Shown here in pieces: positions 606-57,962 of a stretch of 57,962 nucleotides of DNA. Each line of letters opens with the position of its first letter. Within the stretch, counting starts at the first letter, position 1. Under the pieces are notes generated by a model. The model was not told the origin of the DNA. It worked only from the letters and a program-made list of their open reading frames with translations, and did not search any database. Source of the DNA: Candidatus Nomurabacteria bacterium (GTDB lineage: Bacteria > Patescibacteriota > Minisyncoccia > Phycocordibacterales > SBAW01); contig CALQZN010000001.1 of the NCBI GenBank assembly GCA_943349675.1, positions 1 through 57,962 on the forward strand. Direction: 5' to 3'. The translations under genes and the position numbers were made by a program.

Positions 606-719
606 TAAGGTCCAAAAGTAAATATGTAGTAACAACAAATTATTGCGATTCTCAAGTCTTTGCCCGCCGCAGTCCCATCCTTTTTACAGGACGAAGGCGG
701 GCTCTCACTCACAAGAGGA

Positions 720-4005
<3,286 letters not shown>

Positions 4006-4216
4006 CCTTTCTCTTGTGAGAGAGAAAAGGAGACTTAAGAACCGCAATAATTTGTTGTTATATATTTTTCTACAGTTCTAAAATCGCTTTCACGATTTTA
4101 GATTTACCTTGCCCATCTCCACTAAGCTGAAAAGACCCGTATGGGAAATTTCTCAATGGGATGGAATTTGTGTTGTCAAAGAAGCTCGCACTCTTCAGAT
4201 TTTTTCCAACAAAAAA

Positions 4217-5807: not shown

Positions 5808-5902
5808 GCAGTAAATAAAAGTGTTACTTGGCTATTCTATGCAAAATACCGAAGGTGCGCAAAGACACACAAATGTGACAAAAGAAAGTCCCAGAAAAAA
5901 GA

Positions 5903-5925
5903 AAACCTACTCAAAAAAGAGTAGG
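5903..5925 (-). terminator. rho-independent terminator (minus sense)
   Basis: Minus sense reads CCTACTCttttttGAGTAGG followed by TTTTCTTTTTT. Confidence 0.6.
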
Positions 5926-6170
5926 CGGGCATAGGAGGGGGTGGTGGATGAAGAAAGAGCAAAAGGTGGAAAGAAGGATGGATGGGTGGGCGGGTGGAGA
6001 TAAAAAGAACTGAAGTTAAAGACAATAGGAAGTGGGGTGAGCGTGTAAAAAACAGAGGCTCGAAGATGTGGGCGCTGGCAGCAACCACAGTAGGTGTAAC
6101 CCTCAGGCCTCCACTGTCAGACTCTACTTAGTACTACTCACCTACACGCAGAAAAGTTACATACAAAAAA

Positions 6171-6192
6171 ACACCCAGCACATGCCGGGTGT
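6171..6192. terminator. bidirectional terminator downstream of rplL
   Basis: The hairpin ACACCCaGCacatGCcGGGTGT is flanked by A7 and T7 runs. Confidence 0.7.
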
Positions 6193-6233
6193 TTTTTTGT
6201 ATCAAGGTTTAAAGTTGCTTACTTAAGCTCAAC

Positions 6234-6300
6234 CTTGTCACACATAATTTCTTGCTAGAAATTTGCGCGACCCCGCCTCGGCACGACTGCCTCCGGCCGA
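6234..6300 (-). repeat. structured repeat family B, copy B1
   Basis: The copy contains GTCACACAT, the hairpin AATTTCT-tgct-AGAAATT, the core GCGCGACCCCGCCTCGG, the hairpin GGCA-cgac-TGCC, and the tail CTCCGGCC. Confidence 0.8.
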
Positions 6301-6308
6301 AAAGTTGC

Positions 6309-6737
6309 TTACTTAAGCTCAACTTTTCCTCCTGCAGCTTCAACTGCTTTTTTGAGTGCTTCTGCATCCTCTTTCTTCATTCCTTCTTTAAGGACTGATG
6401 GGACTGCGTCAACAAGGTCTTTTGCTTCTTTAAGTCCAAGTGAAAGCGCGTCTTTAACGGCTTTAATAACCTGCACCTTTGCGGCACCCGCGTCAGTTAG
6501 GTGTGCGTTAAAAGAAGACTTCTCTTCTGCTGCGTCCCCTGCTGCTGCTGGGCCCGCTACGGCAACTGCTGCAGCCGAGACACCCCAATGGCCCTCGAGG
6601 GTTTTAACCAACTCGTGGAGCTCGAGTACCGACATTTTTTCAACTGCACTTACGATATCTTTAAACTTTGCAGGGACCTCTACCTTACTTTCTGCTGCAG
6701 GCTCAGCTGCAACCGGAGCTTCTGTTTCGTCTGCCAT
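6309..6737 (-). CDS. rplL: 50S ribosomal protein L7/L12
   Basis: The C-terminal domain ...[56 protein letters not shown] is typical of L7/L12. The start is taken at MADETE; the N-terminus carries an extension of about 25 aa. Confidence 0.9.
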
Positions 6738-10630: not shown

Positions 10631-10657
10631 GAACAAACTCTACCACCCCTACCCTGC

Positions 10658-10721
10658 AAAAAGTTATCCACAGTTTTGCTTACAAAGGACTGACCTTCGT
10701 GGGTTCAGGTGTGGATAAGTG
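10658..10721. repeat. palindromic repeat family A, copy A1 (two perfect DnaA-box 9-mers)
   Basis: TTATCCACA lies at 10664-10672 and its complement TGTGGATAA at 10710-10718. The inner hairpin is CTTACAAAGG-actga-CCTTCGTGGG. Confidence 0.85.
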
Positions 10722-12737: not shown

Positions 12738-12776
12738 ACCTCCATCCTACCACTTTTGGAAAGGCGTGCTTTGTGT

Positions 12777-12840
12777 AAAAAGTTATCCACAGTTCTGTCT
12801 ACGAAGGTCAGTCCTTTGTAAGCCTGGGTGTGGATAAGTC
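12777..12840. repeat. palindromic repeat family A, copy A2 (central hairpin inverted relative to A1)
   Basis: TTATCCACA lies at 12783-12791 and TGTGGATAA at 12829-12837. The inner hairpin is CTACGAAGG-tcagt-CCTTTGTAAG. Confidence 0.85.
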
Positions 12841-12889
12841 AAAAAATGGAAGGAGACCGCGGAAATAGAGCAGCGCACACAAAACAAAA

Positions 12890-35782: not shown

Positions 35783-35805
35783 CAAACTTTGATTATATCG
35801 CTTTG

Positions 35806-35865
35806 AGTTATCCACACCCGAGCTTACAAAGGTCAGTCCTTTGTAAGTAAAACTGTGGATAACTT
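35806..35865. repeat. palindromic repeat family A, copy A3 (reverse orientation of A1)
   Basis: TTATCCACA lies at 35808-35816 and TGTGGATAA at 35854-35862. The inner hairpin CTTACAAAGG-tcagt-CCTTTGTAAG is perfect. Confidence 0.85.
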
Positions 35866-35866
35866 T

Positions 35867-36448
35867 TTACAAGCCGGTGGCGCCGAGGGACTCGTTGATG
35901 GCACGGATAAGAAGGTTGCGAGAGCGAGTAACCTCTGCCGTAAGTTCCATAGAAAAAAAGTCTGCCTCGATAAACGGTGCTATTTCTGGCGTATGCGGCA
36001 GGTACCCCAGGTGCGCCAGCACACGCAGCACCAGCACACACTCGATACTCTCGGCATCCGCATCAGTTTGGGCACGAGCTAGATAGTTAAGACCCTCTGC
36101 AACCGTTGTATATAAATCTCCCGTCGGCTCTTCGCCGTGTATAAGGCGCAGCAGCAACCGTGCGATACGGCCCGCCGCCCGACGGCGCACAGGCGACGTG
36201 CCGAGGTATTCTCTCGACAGATGTTCGGCGCCAACCAACTTCCACTCGTACCTTCCGCGCACCAACGAAAATTTACCGTGGGTCAGTGTCTCGAGCCCAT
36301 AGCGCAACTTTGACTGCTCGACGCGAGCACTGCGTGCCGCCGCACGTACCAGCCCCAGGTCTTTAGTTAAAATTGCGACGAGCGTATTGGCTTCCCCTGC
36401 CCCTTTTTTTGCAAGCACAAGCCCTTCTGTCGCAATAATTTTATGCAT
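35867..36448 (-). CDS. recO: DNA repair protein RecO
   Basis: The N-terminal OB region (ATEGLVLAKKGAGEANTLVAILTKDLGLV) and the overall length fit RecO. Confidence 0.7.
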   Translation of the reverse strand: MHKIIATEGLVLAKKGAGEANTLVAILTKDLGLVRAAARSARVEQSKLRYGLETLTHGKFSLVRGRYEWKLVGAEHLSREYLGTSPVRRRAAGRIARLLLRLIHGEEPTGDLYTTVAEGLNYLARAQTDADAESIECVLVLRVLAHLGYLPHTPEIAPFIEADFFSMELTAEVTRSRNLLIRAINESLGATGL

Positions 36449-51489: not shown

Positions 51490-52005
51490 TTATTGGCGAT
51501 TGTGTAGTTTTTCTACATCCTGCATAAGTTTTTGCAACCCACTTCGAATCTCGTCCAGTGTTTTCTCTTGCCCTGCCTGAGAAGCCTCTTCTGCCTTCTC
51601 GTCTTCAGTCATCTCTTCCACGTCTTCTTGAATCTCGTCGACGTCTTCTTGGATTTCATCAACGTCCTCCTGAATCTCGTCCACATCTTCTTGGATCTCG
51701 TCGATATCTTCTTGAATCTCTTCGATGTCTTGCTCAACATTTTCGATAGTCCGTGTTGTGTAGTTGATGGTCATCTGTATAAAAATCGACAAGTAAATTG
51801 CTTCCAAAGAAACAATGGTGGTCAAAATCAAAAGCATCCGTTCAAATGGCAAAACTCCAAATTGCACCAACAAAAAACTACCCAAAAACAAAAACGTGTG
51901 TAGGACGACAGACTCAAGTGAGCCGACCGCACGTGTAACCCCAAGAGCCAGTTGCTCTATTTGTTCTTTTGGCTCTTTTCGTTTTTCTTTACCTTTTTTA
52001 GCCAT
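51490..52005 (-). CDS. DUF1003-like membrane protein with an acidic heptad-repeat tail
   Basis: It has two TM helices with the motif TIVSLEAIYLSIFIQ. Repeats (D/E)EIQEDV x5-6 follow. Confidence 0.55.
   Translation of the reverse strand: MAKKGKEKRKEPKEQIEQLALGVTRAVGSLESVVLHTFLFLGSFLLVQFGVLPFERMLLILTTIVSLEAIYLSIFIQMTINYTTRTIENVEQDIEEIQEDIDEIQEDVDEIQEDVDEIQEDVDEIQEDVEEMTEDEKAEEASQAGQEKTLDEIRSGLQKLMQDVEKLHNRQ
51618..51732 (-). repeat. in-frame 21-nt tandem repeat (~5.5 units)
   Basis: The unit gacgtcttcttg(a/g)at(c/t)tcgtc encodes DEIQEDV units. Confidence 0.8.
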
Positions 52006-53686: not shown

Positions 53687-53722
53687 AGTGCAGATTGTAC
53701 GTTATTTTATCTTTTATTACTC

Positions 53723-53741
53723 TGGGTGACCGATGGGACTC
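53723..53741 (-). repeat. duplicated 3' end of tRNA-His (19 bp, identical to 53915-53933)
   Basis: tgggtgaccgatgggactc occurs at both positions. Confidence 0.9.
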
Positions 53742-53916
53742 CTTTTTGCCCGTCGGCTCGAATCGTTGCGCATGGCTCACGATATACTCGCCTCCTCCTT
53801 AAAAAGCCTCGGGCCCTCGCTGTTTTGCTACGCAAGCTCGGGTCCCGTTCGATTCCCAAGCAACGCTCGCGTTGCAAAACTACCCAACCTTGCGGCTGGG
53901 TAGTTTTGTCACCGTG

Positions 53917-53989
53917 GGTGACCGATGGGACTCGAACCCACAACAACTGGTACCACAAACCAGGGCTCTACCATTGAGCTACGGCCACC
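53917..53989 (-). tRNA. tRNA-His (GTG) with encoded G-1 and C73
   Basis: It folds as a cloverleaf by hand: G-1, acceptor GTGGCCG/CGGTCAC, anticodon arm CTGGT-TTGTGGT-ACCAG, T arm GTGGG-TTCGAGT-CCCAT. Confidence 0.85.
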
Positions 53990-55026: not shown

Positions 55027-55054
55027 GACAATTATTATAGTTTATTTTGCTTCT

Positions 55055-55118
55055 GGTCACAGATATTTTTCTGCTGAAAAATTCCGCGACCCCGCCTCGA
55101 CGCCGTCGCGTCTGCGGC
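55055..55118 (-). repeat. structured repeat family B, copy B3
   Basis: The copy contains GGTCACAGAT, the hairpin ATTTTTC-tgct-GAAAAAT, the core CCGCGACCCCGCCTCGA, the hairpin GACGC-cgtc-GCGTC, and the tail CTGCGGCT. Confidence 0.8.
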
Positions 55119-55144
55119 TCACAAAATGTGTCCCACACATTTTG

Positions 55145-55226
55145 TGCCCAGGACTGGACTTGAACCAGCATGTCTTGCGACGTTACCACCTCAAGGTAAT
55201 GGGTCTACCAATTTCCCCACCTGGGC
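55145..55226 (-). tRNA. tRNA-Leu (GAG)
   Basis: The acceptor is GCCCAGG/CCTGGGC and the anticodon loop is TTGAGGT. It has a long variable arm and the T arm GGTTCAAGTCC. CCA is not encoded. Confidence 0.85.
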
Positions 55227-55756: not shown

Positions 55757-56473
55757 TTAAACGCTTCGCAATTCCTTCTCTGCCTGCACAAAATCGGGCG
55801 GCAGCGGCGCCTCAAATGTCCGCTCACCCCCGCGAGGGATCTTTACAGTGAGGGATAGCGCGTGGAGCGCCAGCCTATCAAACCCCAGTAGGGCTTCGCG
55901 TCTTGATGCATAGAGCCTATCAGCCACGATAGGGCGTTGTATCGCTGCAAAGTGCACACGGATTTGGTGTGTGCGACCAGTTTTTGGAAACACCTCTACA
56001 TAGGTAACTTCCGGAGTACGAGTTATAACCCGGTACATCGTCAGAGCCTCGCGCATAACACCATAGGCATTTTTTGCAGAGCGCGGGCCTGTGCCGCCGC
56101 GCGTGCTGCCAATTGGCTTGTCGATAATACCCCTATCATCTTTAATATTGCCGTATACAAATGCGCGATACACTTTGCGTACCTCTCTTGCCTGAAATTG
56201 ACTCTTTAAAAAATCAAAACTCTCTTGGGTACGGGCAACGATCAAGACCCCCGAAGTTTCGCGGTCAATGCGGTGCACGATACCTGGGCGGTCGATAACC
56301 GTGCCGTCGGCCAAAGTCTGCGGCTCCCCTACCCCCACAATGTCGGGGTACTCGGCAAGTAGCCAGTCGACCAGCGTTGCGCGGTCATGCTTGCCGTCGG
56401 CGTGCACGGCCAGGCCTGCGGGTTTGTTGACGACAATAACCGAGTCATCTTCGTATAGGACGGTGGGTTCCAC
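55757..56473 (-). CDS. RluA-family pseudouridine synthase (no S4 domain)
   Basis: The motifs are VVNKPAGLAVH and HRIDRETSGVLIVART. The GTG start lies 4 nt from the tRNA-Val 3' end. Confidence 0.85.
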   Translation of the reverse strand: MEPTVLYEDDSVIVVNKPAGLAVHADGKHDRATLVDWLLAEYPDIVGVGEPQTLADGTVIDRPGIVHRIDRETSGVLIVARTQESFDFLKSQFQAREVRKVYRAFVYGNIKDDRGIIDKPIGSTRGGTGPRSAKNAYGVMREALTMYRVITRTPEVTYVEVFPKTGRTHQIRVHFAAIQRPIVADRLYASRREALLGFDRLALHALSLTVKIPRGGERTFEAPLPPDFVQAEKELRSV

Positions 56474-56477
56474 TTTG

Positions 56478-56550
56478 TGCGCGGTGAGGGGCTCGAACCC
56501 CCGACCTTCTCAGTGTAAATGAGTTGCTCTACCAACTGAGCTAACCGCGC
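56478..56550 (-). tRNA. tRNA-Val (TAC)
   Basis: The acceptor is GCGCGGT/ACCGCGC, the D arm is GCTC-AGTTGGTA-GAGC, the anticodon loop is TTTACAC, and the T arm is GGGGG-TTCGAGC-CCCTC. Confidence 0.85.
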
Positions 56551-56617
56551 ATCGGCCTTAGGCCGAACCCTACTGTACCCCTATTTGGGGAGGTTTTCAA
56601 TACTTTCAAAATCTCAT

Positions 56618-56665
56618 GGTCACAAGTATTTTTCCTGACGGAAAAATCTCGCGACCCCGCCTCGC
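56618..56665 (-). repeat. structured repeat family B, copy B4 (short form)
   Basis: The copy contains GGTCACAAGT, the hairpin ATTTTTCC-tgac-GGAAAAAT, and the core TCGCGACCCCGCCTCGC. It has no second hairpin. Confidence 0.8.
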
Positions 56666-56681
56666 AGTTTATAGAGGAATC

Positions 56682-56760
56682 GGTCACAGGTTCCAGCCTG
56701 CTGGCTGGCCCCGCGACCCCGCCTCACTCGCCTACGCTCGCTCCGGCCTTCGATTCCTCG
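56682..56760 (-). repeat. structured repeat family B, copy B5 (stem fully replaced)
   Basis: The copy contains GGTCACAGGT, the hairpin CCAGCC-tgct-GGCTGG, the core CCGCGACCCCGCCTCAC, then ...CTCCGGCC and TTCGATTCC. Confidence 0.8.
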
Positions 56761-56816
56761 TAGTACCTCCAGCAACAAGACAAAACCGCACAATAGGTGC
56801 GGTTTTGTCTTGTTGG

Positions 56817-56888
56817 GTGCCCCCGCGAGGAATCGAACCTCGAATAACGGCTTAGAAGTCCGCAGTTATATCCGTTTAACTACAGGGG
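56817..56888 (-). tRNA. tRNA-Arg (TCT)
   Basis: The acceptor is GCCCCTG/CGGGGGC, the D arm is GTTA-AACGGATA-TAAC, the anticodon loop is CTTCTAA, and the T arm is CGAGG-TTCGATT-CCTCG. There is one A-G mismatch at 31-39. Confidence 0.8.
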
Positions 56889-56901
56889 CTACCCGGGCAT
56901 A

Positions 56902-57864: not shown

Positions 57865-57962
57865 ATACTGTTTAGAGGAAATAGAAGCAAATAGAGTATC
57901 GACGGAGTCTTTCGCAGCGCGGCGGCGCGAGAACGAGCAAATTTTTAGCAAAAAATTATGCG

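Follow-up and report, generated by a model that had tools for sequence, protein, structure and literature searches.

A candidate guide-bearing mobile RNA cassette that duplicates gene ends in Patescibacteria and Elusimicrobia

Behind rplL, the gene for ribosomal protein L7/L12, in a 57,962-nt contig of a Candidatus Nomurabacteria bacterium (CALQZN010000001.1, assembly GCA_943349675.1; this whole stretch is referred to here as the window), there is a non-coding cassette of ~90 nt that lies in the 3' untranslated region (3' UTR) and is associated with a second copy of the end of the gene. The cassette belongs to a repeat family, family B, whose members join a short antisense guide to a conserved structured core. 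We consider it probable that family B is a guide-directed, gene-end-regenerating and non-autonomous mobile RNA cassette, homing to abundant RNAs, or to the genes for them, at their 3' parts. The family matches no described RNA or mobile-element family. An earlier note on this DNA had described the duplication and likened it to the products of site-specific or Cas1/casposase-like integration, but it had missed the antisense guide, the covarying three-way-junction core and the strict co-orientation of the elements with the gene upstream.

The duplicated 23-mer, AAAGTTGCTTACTTAAGCTCAAC, has exactly two sites in the window, 6211-6233 and 6301-6323, and no further match there even when three mismatches are allowed; no match arose in 100 shuffles, and none is expected by chance. 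The rplL reading frame (6309-6737, minus strand; Pfam Ribosomal_L12), whose exact protein product was found in 38 blocks of public assemblies, has its stop codon at 6309-6311 and encodes a C terminus ending in KVELK, and the 23-mer therefore consists of the last four codons, the stop codon and 8 nt. The main observations of the earlier note were thus borne out: the duplication is perfect over 23 bp, the proximal copy ends an intact rplL, the distal copy precedes the terminator (an intrinsic-terminator-like hairpin that closes the rplL transcription unit at 6161-6202 on the minus strand), and the 67 nt between the copies (6234-6300), although unique when taken whole, are part of family B as judged both by repeat family and by a match to model R1. 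The repeat is longer than had been noticed, extending to 26 nt with one mismatch (6211-6236 versus 6301-6326), and the contrast with ordinary insertion sequences also stands, as their target-site duplications and those of miniature transposable elements with inverted repeats (MITEs) span only 2-10 bp (PMC11602168). One detail needs amendment: the 23-mer does comprise 8 nt, TAA and the last four codons, but the supposed 3' flank, GCAACTTT, mostly overlaps the guide CAACTTTTC, and perhaps no more than the first bases of GCAACTTT (minus strand) come from the original 3' UTR.

Read 5' to 3' on the minus strand, the cassette has the order ...GGA/AAAGUUGAGCUUAAGUAA-G-CAACUUUUC-62-nt core ending in UGUGAC/AAGGUUGAGCUUAAGUAA-GCAACUUU-terminator, where slashes mark the junctions. 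The proximal gene end, AAAGTTGAGCTTAAGTAA (6309-6326; K, V, E, L, K and stop), is the functional end of rplL and supplies the 5' strand and the loop of a 'closed' hairpin, P1. It is followed by the 9-nt antisense guide CAACTTTTC (6299-6307), the reverse complement of GAAAAGTTG in rplL, which reaches 2 nt past the insertion point and aligns as the 5' strand of P1 in model R1; the insertion point itself, GGA/AAAGTTG, was deduced from the junction UGUGAC/AAAGTTG in loci L002, L004, L009 and L010. As RNA, the guide CAACUUUUC is the reverse complement of GAAAAGUUG within the rplL reading frame and has two possible partners: with the real gene end it can form the closed hairpin, which spans the stop codon, and with the distal copy an 'open' P1. 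In other species (L067, L107, L127 and L162), guide and rplL codons co-vary. The conserved core (6237-6298), supported by the R1 match, by covariation and by the minimum-free-energy (MFE) fold, contains a GCC-G-GA/GA-GGC helix, a P2 hairpin, a GGG linker and a P3 helix. The distal copy, AAGGTTGAGCTTAAGTAA plus GCAACTTT (6211-6236), located by repeat search, represents the gene end after displacement and provides the open P1 with its 3' strand. All of these parts lie on the minus strand.

Covariation across the family argues that the core is folded. In a MAFFT alignment of 51 short-form copies, 87% of the cells were paired as compared with 68% in shuffles, and the covariation score was 0.50 versus 0.15, a value reached by none of 500 shuffles (slid controls gave 0.08-0.12). 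A model-aligned set of 112 distinct copies, which leans towards the structure because it was fitted to the model, gave 91% versus 67% paired cells and a score of 0.56 versus 0.14 (again reached by 0/500 shuffles; slid controls 0.06-0.09), with compensatory changes in 27 of the 30 pairs. The common structure consists of P1, formed by the guide and the flanking target; the GCC/GGC helix with its G bulge and tandem G-A/A-G; P2, a variable hairpin; the GGG linker; and P3, which has a GUCGCG/UGUGAC base, two invariant G.U pairs, a bulged A and commonly an AGCA loop. The RNA of the rplL copy, B1, has an MFE of -50.2 kcal/mol (z=-5.3) with the junction recovered, as opposed to -33.6 kcal/mol (z=-2.9) for the opposite strand. 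This much better fold of the minus strand, together with the two invariant G.U pairs in P3, indicates a sense-strand RNA, and the core is a structured single strand with a three-way junction, most likely RNA. The three-way junction, the substrate-like P1 and the precise junction 3' of UGUGAC are suggestive of the architecture of a self-cleaving ribozyme; that the core is in fact catalytic is possible but less likely than not.

To relate the duplication to the insert, we collected 80 metagenomic relatives of rplL (44-85% identity), of which 73 were informative in having at least 120 nt downstream. A second gene end is absent from 69 of these and present in four (L162, L146, L147 and L148), each of which carries a guide-bearing insert. 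The insert of L162 is a family B element; those of the other three, which come from three other lineages of the candidate phyla radiation (CPR), consist of a stop codon, an antisense guide, a core of ~100 nt and a second, synonymous gene end (L146:1530-1720, L147:1540-1760, L148:1515-1740), but they have no significant match to R1 and their cores are unrelated to that of family B. This layout therefore extends beyond a single family. Relatives that lack the element and nevertheless carry the duplicated 23-mer, which would have made the duplication independent of it, were looked for among these sequences and not found. The absence of a second end in 69 of 73 relatives and the presence of an insert in all four of the others support a duplication that derives from the target, regenerates the gene end and is linked to the insert.

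Across 11 rplL and rplK loci, proximal and distal copies are separated by 23 synonymous or stop-to-stop changes and five non-synonymous ones, a bias with P=3.6e-10 against a neutral expectation of 25%, or 2.6e-5 against the 43% that applies if only the proximal copy is constrained, and every distal copy has kept an in-frame stop codon. To judge from these sequences, the distal copy is probably not a simple decaying duplicate, and both copies are likely to descend from working gene ends; either the cassette would bring its own gene end on entry, in an attP-like form of homing, or the distal copy may sometimes be used. All ten assemblies that encode an identical RplL contain the element, and among these strains the proximal copy, the guide and the core differ by only 0-3 nt, while the distal haplotypes are AAGGTTGAGCTTAAGTAAGCAACTTT (the window), AAAGTTGAGTTGAAATAATCAAATCC and ...TAAGCAAATATAAAATAGC. 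Because the distal copies in other strains with the identical protein are without the GCAACTTT stretch, the perfection of the 23-mer is probably secondary, and the window's perfect repeat, guide copy included, probably arose by later homogenization between the two copies.

Family B is not confined to rplL. Model R1 identifies four full copies in the window, all on the minus strand and scoring 75-83 bits, behind rplL, rplK, tRNA-Leu and tRNA-Arg, as well as one shortened copy. B1 (6223-6312) has 82.9 bits and E=1.8e-24. B2 (47979-48068; 75.0 bits), behind rplK (48067-48489), has the guide ACGTCCACC (RNA ACGUCCACC) and a distal gene end, GTGGACGTGAAATAA (GUGGACGUGAAAUAA), that encodes VDVK and a stop with one synonymous change, and like B1 it sits between a stop codon and a terminator hairpin, here at 47929-47964; its core has a double compensatory change in the otherwise invariant base of P3 (CCCGCG/UGUGGG). 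B3 (55042-55133; 75.0 bits) lies directly behind tRNA-Leu (55144-55226), with a P1 that is a closed hairpin of tRNA trailer and guide, and is present in all ten strain loci. B4b (56669-56762; 80.0 bits), behind tRNA-Arg (56816-56889), has a guide, GAGGAATCGAA, that is antisense to the T arm of that tRNA, and the T-loop duplicate CGATTCCTC comes after the copy. The shortened copy, B4a (56619-56658; 29.8 bits, model positions 40-77), consists of the P3 half only and was apparently disrupted by B4b. A weak partial match at the edge of the window (57911-57961, plus strand; 16.5 bits, E=0.004) may be a degenerate copy.

A second type of cassette, with the layout of family B but a different core of ~120 nt, is found behind tRNA-His (53916-53988) at 53722-53915 on the minus strand. 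It has a guide-like segment, GGGAATCGAA, antisense to the tRNA-His T loop with one mismatch, and a second tRNA 3' end, GAGTCCCATCGGTCACCCA, at 53723-53741. It occurs in all strain loci, but it has no significant match to R1 and its fold is not significant.

Most copies of the family lie 45-150 nt behind an intact tRNA gene. The arms of P1 vary between copies, in each case matching the local target (CAACTTTT, ACGTCCAC, GGAATCG and others). Within 300 nt upstream, 79 elements have a tRNA gene on the same strand and six have one on the opposite strand. The 9-14 nt that precede RGCCGGA are perfectly antisense to the T loop and T stem of the upstream tRNA in 37 of 74 copies, so that each tRNA has a guide of its own. 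Of the 81 tRNA-linked copies, 48 still show a duplicate of the tRNA 3' part, and in all 48 it begins at C56 of the T loop directly after UGUGAC, a precise junction; a flanking duplication, the generality of which the earlier note had proposed to check, is thus common to the family and starts at the same base. The other boundary is less strict: about 20 of the 48 duplicates end -2 to +3 nt from the annotated tRNA end, and the longer ones are mostly tandem units. Across the family, the elements combine a precise 3' junction with a 5' side that varies. Without exception among 44 T-loop copies, the dinucleotide just before RGCC is complementary to the two target bases that lie upstream of the insertion point, with covariation (TT/AA 38, TG/CA 3, TC/GA 1, CG/CG 1 and GT/AC 1); the same 2-nt overlap is seen at rplL (GA/UC) and rplK (GG/CC). 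Since this pairing spans the insertion point, the guide reads the uninterrupted target. Consistent pairing preferences are found when the two copies are compared, the guide pairing better with the proximal, intact copy in 12 cases and with the distal copy in one (31 ties; p=0.001). A second class is inserted near the acceptor 3' end, with guides that end in ...UUUGUG+CA and flanks that begin with CACAAA...; it includes B3. Further copies lie in or beside 5S rRNA genes and near the 5' parts of tRNAs.

Two copies are intron-like in that no intact gene copy lies upstream: L073:2740-2844 is inside a tRNA gene at the boundary of D arm and anticodon stem, and L066:199-290 is inside a tRNA T loop. 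We considered whether the elements might generally be introns, but although removal of the element restores a tRNA in 57 cases, an intact tRNA is already present upstream in 55 of the 57 (L066 is an exception; L073 was missed by this deletion test because of masked bases). A transfer-messenger RNA (tmRNA), a tRNA-like or a permuted tRNA, suggested by '...GCACCA' tails, was likewise rejected, as ARAGORN shows the tails to be the duplicated end of the upstream tRNA.

The dimensions of the duplication bear on the enzymatic models that it brings to mind. The duplicated length is 26 nt at rplL, ~17 nt at rplK and 9-57 nt in tRNA-linked copies, with longer values for tandem units, and only 62-110 nt lie between the copies; the ~40 open reading frames (ORFs) of the window that we scanned are of housekeeping type, with no integrase, recombinase, Cas1/casposase, transposase or reverse transcriptase found among them. 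In staggered integration of the Cas1/casposase type, the 23-mer would correspond to a CRISPR repeat or a casposon target-site duplication, and a long duplication does flank a short insert here. However, the duplicated length is not fixed, the scanned ORFs include no cas1 gene, there is no leader or array of unrelated spacers, and the 'spacer' is the same conserved structured core everywhere, so that this suggestion of the earlier note is already contradicted and we give it almost no credence. A MITE-like or PATE-like element acting at the level of DNA and moved in trans, for instance by an HUH enzyme that recognizes folded DNA, would turn P1 into a terminal inverted repeat and the gene-end copy into a long target-site duplication. 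The inverted termini and direct flanking repeats agree with this, as do the short, numerous copies without an ORF; G.T pairs could form in single-stranded DNA as well, and IS200/IS605 elements use short DNA guides adjoining hairpins. Yet each copy has its own 'inverted repeats', identical to its target and not specific to the element, the orientation follows the upstream gene by 79 to 6, no transposase is among the scanned ORFs, and duplications that measure 9-57 nt or more and have only one of their two boundaries fixed are at odds with the 2-10 bp of MITEs (PMC11602168). Taken together, we regard such a DNA element as quite improbable.

A scan for the pattern GAGGCGGGGTCGCG-N15-35-TGTGAC, using one genome per species, yielded at least 120 loci, nearly all in Patescibacteria or Elusimicrobia, with two or three obvious chance hits; the Patescibacteria labels include Saccharibacteria, Paceibacteria, Nomura-, Adler-, Kaiser- and Berkelbacteria, WWE3 and Microgenomates. 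Searching the scanned loci with R1 adds more divergent copies and gives 113 hits in all at E<=1e-6 in 0.72 Mb. A 14-nt core is common to distant phyla, and the targets comprise tRNA T loops, tRNA acceptor ends, 5S rRNA, rplL and rplK. Tandem arrays occur in six loci (L010, L038, L129, L086, L022 and L135), as would be expected if a gene, left intact by regeneration of its end, could be targeted again. At a contig end in one of them (L010:3426-3646) at least 2.5 units of 'gene end-guide-core' follow one another head to tail with a period of 90 nt; this may be a genuine tandem array, or it may reflect how a repeated or circular unit was assembled. Signs of rearrangement are also seen between strains: in L216-L221, which encode an identical DUF475 protein, the tRNA-Arg/tRNA-Val cluster differs (~1100-1560, corresponding to window 56470-56900), a B3-like copy replacing tRNA-Arg and B4b in L218, and no intact tRNA-Val being present in that cluster in L216 and L221. 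The elements seem to be hot spots of recombination. Their spacers and flanks contain a recurring hairpin, its loop CUGC and its stem variable, for example GCAGGCAAA-CTGC-TTTGCCTGC, often at the expected position of a terminator (loci include L046, L061, L071, L092, L116, L117 and L133).

Among viral contigs there was a single family B match, a tandem array in a locus without a detected tRNA, and therefore no sign of a phage attP. This matters for the idea that the arrangement is a remnant of classical site-specific integration, the attL and attR of an integrase island or phage whose interior has been deleted, as in cis-mobilizable elements (CIMEs). The likeness to attL/attR that the earlier note had drawn holds for the intact gene and its displaced partial copy. 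Regeneration of the gene end speaks for such a remnant, as do an identity block that extends from a T-loop position to the tRNA 3' end, like that of tRNA-targeting integrases, and the one viral match. The idea fails on the rest, as the ~40 scanned ORFs of the window include no integrase, the copies are only 62-110 nt apart, the same 62-nt core lies between dozens of different repeat pairs that each match their own target, such a model leaves no role to the antisense guide or to the covarying RNA core, and the viral match is itself a tandem array lacking a detected tRNA. We therefore view an integration remnant as very improbable.

A cis-acting RNA that serves the host deserves more consideration, although we still think it unlikely. 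Here the element would be part of a 3' UTR or tRNA trailer and act as a self-cleaving or processing ribozyme, a stabilizer or a translation-sensing switch, with P1 built from local sequence, the second gene end as an alternative pairing partner, and new copies arising by local duplication and retained through selection. The constant position inside a transcription unit, between stop codon or tRNA end and terminator, fits this well, and so do the guide's covariation with rplL codons across species, a closed P1 that spans the stop codon, the presence of B3 in all strains sampled and the high conservation of the core. Such a role is harder to reconcile with the 69 of 73 rplL relatives that do without the element, with tandem arrays, truncated or nested copies and strain-level rearrangements, with a patchy distribution across phyla despite a near-identical core, with unrelated cores at the same site in the same layout, and with the use of several tRNA, 5S and mRNA targets.

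If, as we favor, family B is a mobile cassette, its copy-specific guide would read the uninterrupted 3' part of a highly expressed gene, and the cassette would insert at the site so read, regenerating the gene end and displacing the older end downstream. The insertion itself would have created the duplication, and the cassette would carry its own gene end into the genome, following the attP-like logic of homing. The intermediate may be RNA, with either a ribozyme-like step of cleavage and ligation or reverse transcription supplied in trans. The core might attach its own 3' end to the target at a point 2 nt within the guide duplex, the reaction taking place in RNA or in an R-loop, with the product fixed by reverse transcription, recombination or displacement synthesis; joining and fixation of this kind would leave one boundary precise and the other variable, a pattern shared with target-primed retrotransposition. 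In the boldest version, which we put forward tentatively and think somewhat unlikely, family B and its look-alikes with other cores would be a new class of programmable mobile RNAs, minimal RNA-guided 'homing ribozymes' with a catalytic three-way junction of ~60 nt and no element-encoded protein. They would link their 3' end (UGUGAC) to the target at a set distance from the junction, and they would live as parasites of tRNA, 5S rRNA and ribosomal-protein gene ends in ultra-small bacteria.

Several points weigh against a mobile cassette. The model does not account for the writing of a new guide for a new target: schemes of hairpin capping, snap-back and template switching were considered, none of which gives the observed order without extra assumptions, and template-switch 'quasi-palindrome correction' of an initially short hairpin would be one possibility. 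The scanned ORFs of the window offer no enzyme, and the family has not been tied to any reverse transcriptase, recombinase or transposase. No insertion event was caught between near-identical genomes, nor was there an empty site among the ten strains with identical RplL. The rplL copy occurs in lineages whose RplL is only ~61% identical (L162), its guide tracking the codons, which fits a vertically inherited and selected host function too. Where a tRNA duplicate stops at the 3' end of the tRNA, selection for a functional tRNA would account for it no less than an RNA intermediate. Finally, the core sequence was fixed in the pattern scan, and hence its invariance is partly built in.

If the proposed mechanism is correct, Patescibacteria and Elusimicrobia carry an undescribed, very compact element that reads its target by base pairing and spares essential genes, a new kind of mobile or structured RNA among the few systems that use guides. 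Many small 'pseudo-tRNA ends' and assembly breaks in these genomes would also find an explanation, and the element would provide a scaffold of ~60 nt whose guide obeys a simple rule, covering 2 nt upstream of the reaction site and at least 7 nt downstream. Even when read with the greatest caution, the data define a new, widespread and strongly covarying RNA family that is missing from Rfam. For annotation, the duplicated gene ends, tandem units and rearrangements affect the calling of tRNA genes and operon ends in metagenome-assembled genomes.

The window has other features of note. A palindromic repeat family occurs at 10655-10720, 12774-12843 and 35799-35871, with arms that end in DnaA-box-like TTATCCACA / TGTGGATAA; units similar to these lie in the flanks of L040 and L064. 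The match to 23S rRNA (716-4009) spans 3294 nt against a model of 2925 positions, which makes one or more insertions or introns in the gene probable; in a related locus, L070, the 23S gene contains a group I intron. Between the rplL terminator and the next gene, 5837-6150 contains a purine-rich stretch (GGAGGGGGTGGTGGATGAAGAAAG...) and a strain-conserved segment and may be another non-coding feature. At 51602-51731, five tandem copies with a 21-nt period lie inside an ORF and correspond to a seven-residue protein repeat.

Comparison with known systems begins with Rfam. A gathering-score scan of the window and 18 loci against Rfam 15 gave no family match to the element, and a scan of the window copy and L029 at E<=10 gave none that covers it; only terminator look-alikes, tRNAs and rRNAs were returned, and the families without a match include hammerhead, hepatitis delta virus (HDV), twister, twister-sister, pistol, hatchet, group I intron and HEARO. 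Nor did the literature on CPR tRNA genes, introns, ribozymes and mobile elements, or a search with the core sequence, yield a description of the element.

The integrative elements that use the 3' part of tRNA and tmRNA genes, and the CIMEs, which derive from them and lack an integrase, resemble family B in leaving an intact gene and a displaced partial copy, in a repeat with a fixed starting point in the T loop that reaches approximately to the tRNA 3' end, and in that family B, given its synonymous differences, appears to bring its own gene end. However, the interior of family B is a structured non-coding segment of 62-110 nt without a recombinase or kilobase cargo, every copy has a guide to its own target, and the ends of protein genes and 5S rRNA are used as well. 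Bacterial MITEs and the REP/BIME, ERIC, Correia and RPE repeats are similarly short, numerous, foldable, co-transcribed with their neighbors and recombination hot spots, but the termini of family B are not element-specific, its duplications of 9 to 57 nt and more are not of 2-10 bp, and it has a target-complementary guide and a precise 3' junction.

In the systems guided by nucleic acids, among them IS200/IS605, the IS110 bridge RNA, the IscB/TnpB omega RNA and TIGR-Tas, the target is likewise read by pairing of a short programmable segment beside a conserved scaffold; family B differs in having no associated protein gene and an unrelated scaffold. TIGR arrays have 8-12-nt dual repeats, 9-nt spacers and an adjoining gene for a Nop-domain Tas protein (PMC12045711), and a TIGR-Tas array was rejected as an identity for family B, whose unit structure differs and which has no adjacent protein gene.

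Homing group I and group II introns, with their internal guide sequences or pairing of exon- and intron-binding sites (EBS-IBS), share with family B a short guide in a structured RNA that pairs with the exon at the insertion point, homing to the same conserved site in other genomes and, in rare copies (L073 and L066), a location inside tRNA genes. The core of family B is far smaller, ~62 nt, and has no match to Intron_gpI, and rplL and rplK are intact; splicing is not needed, because the usual arrangement duplicates the gene end and does not interrupt the gene. Long and short interspersed nuclear elements (LINEs and SINEs), which move by target-primed reverse transcription, also combine one precise with one variable junction and have duplications that are variable and possibly long, and their non-autonomous short copies are linked to tRNA genes; family B is bacterial, lacks a poly(A) tail and an identified reverse transcriptase, and has a guide at its 5' end in place of microhomology at the 3' end.

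The closest working analogy is the R2 retrotransposon, at the 5' end of which an HDV-like ribozyme builds its P1 from 28S rRNA sequence. As proposed for family B, sequence of the upstream host gene pairs with the 5' region of the element as P1 in a co-transcript, and a highly expressed RNA gene is targeted. Family B would nevertheless not belong to that ribozyme family: no HDV fold or Rfam match was found for it, it has no ORF, its guide varies from copy to copy, and its targets are many.

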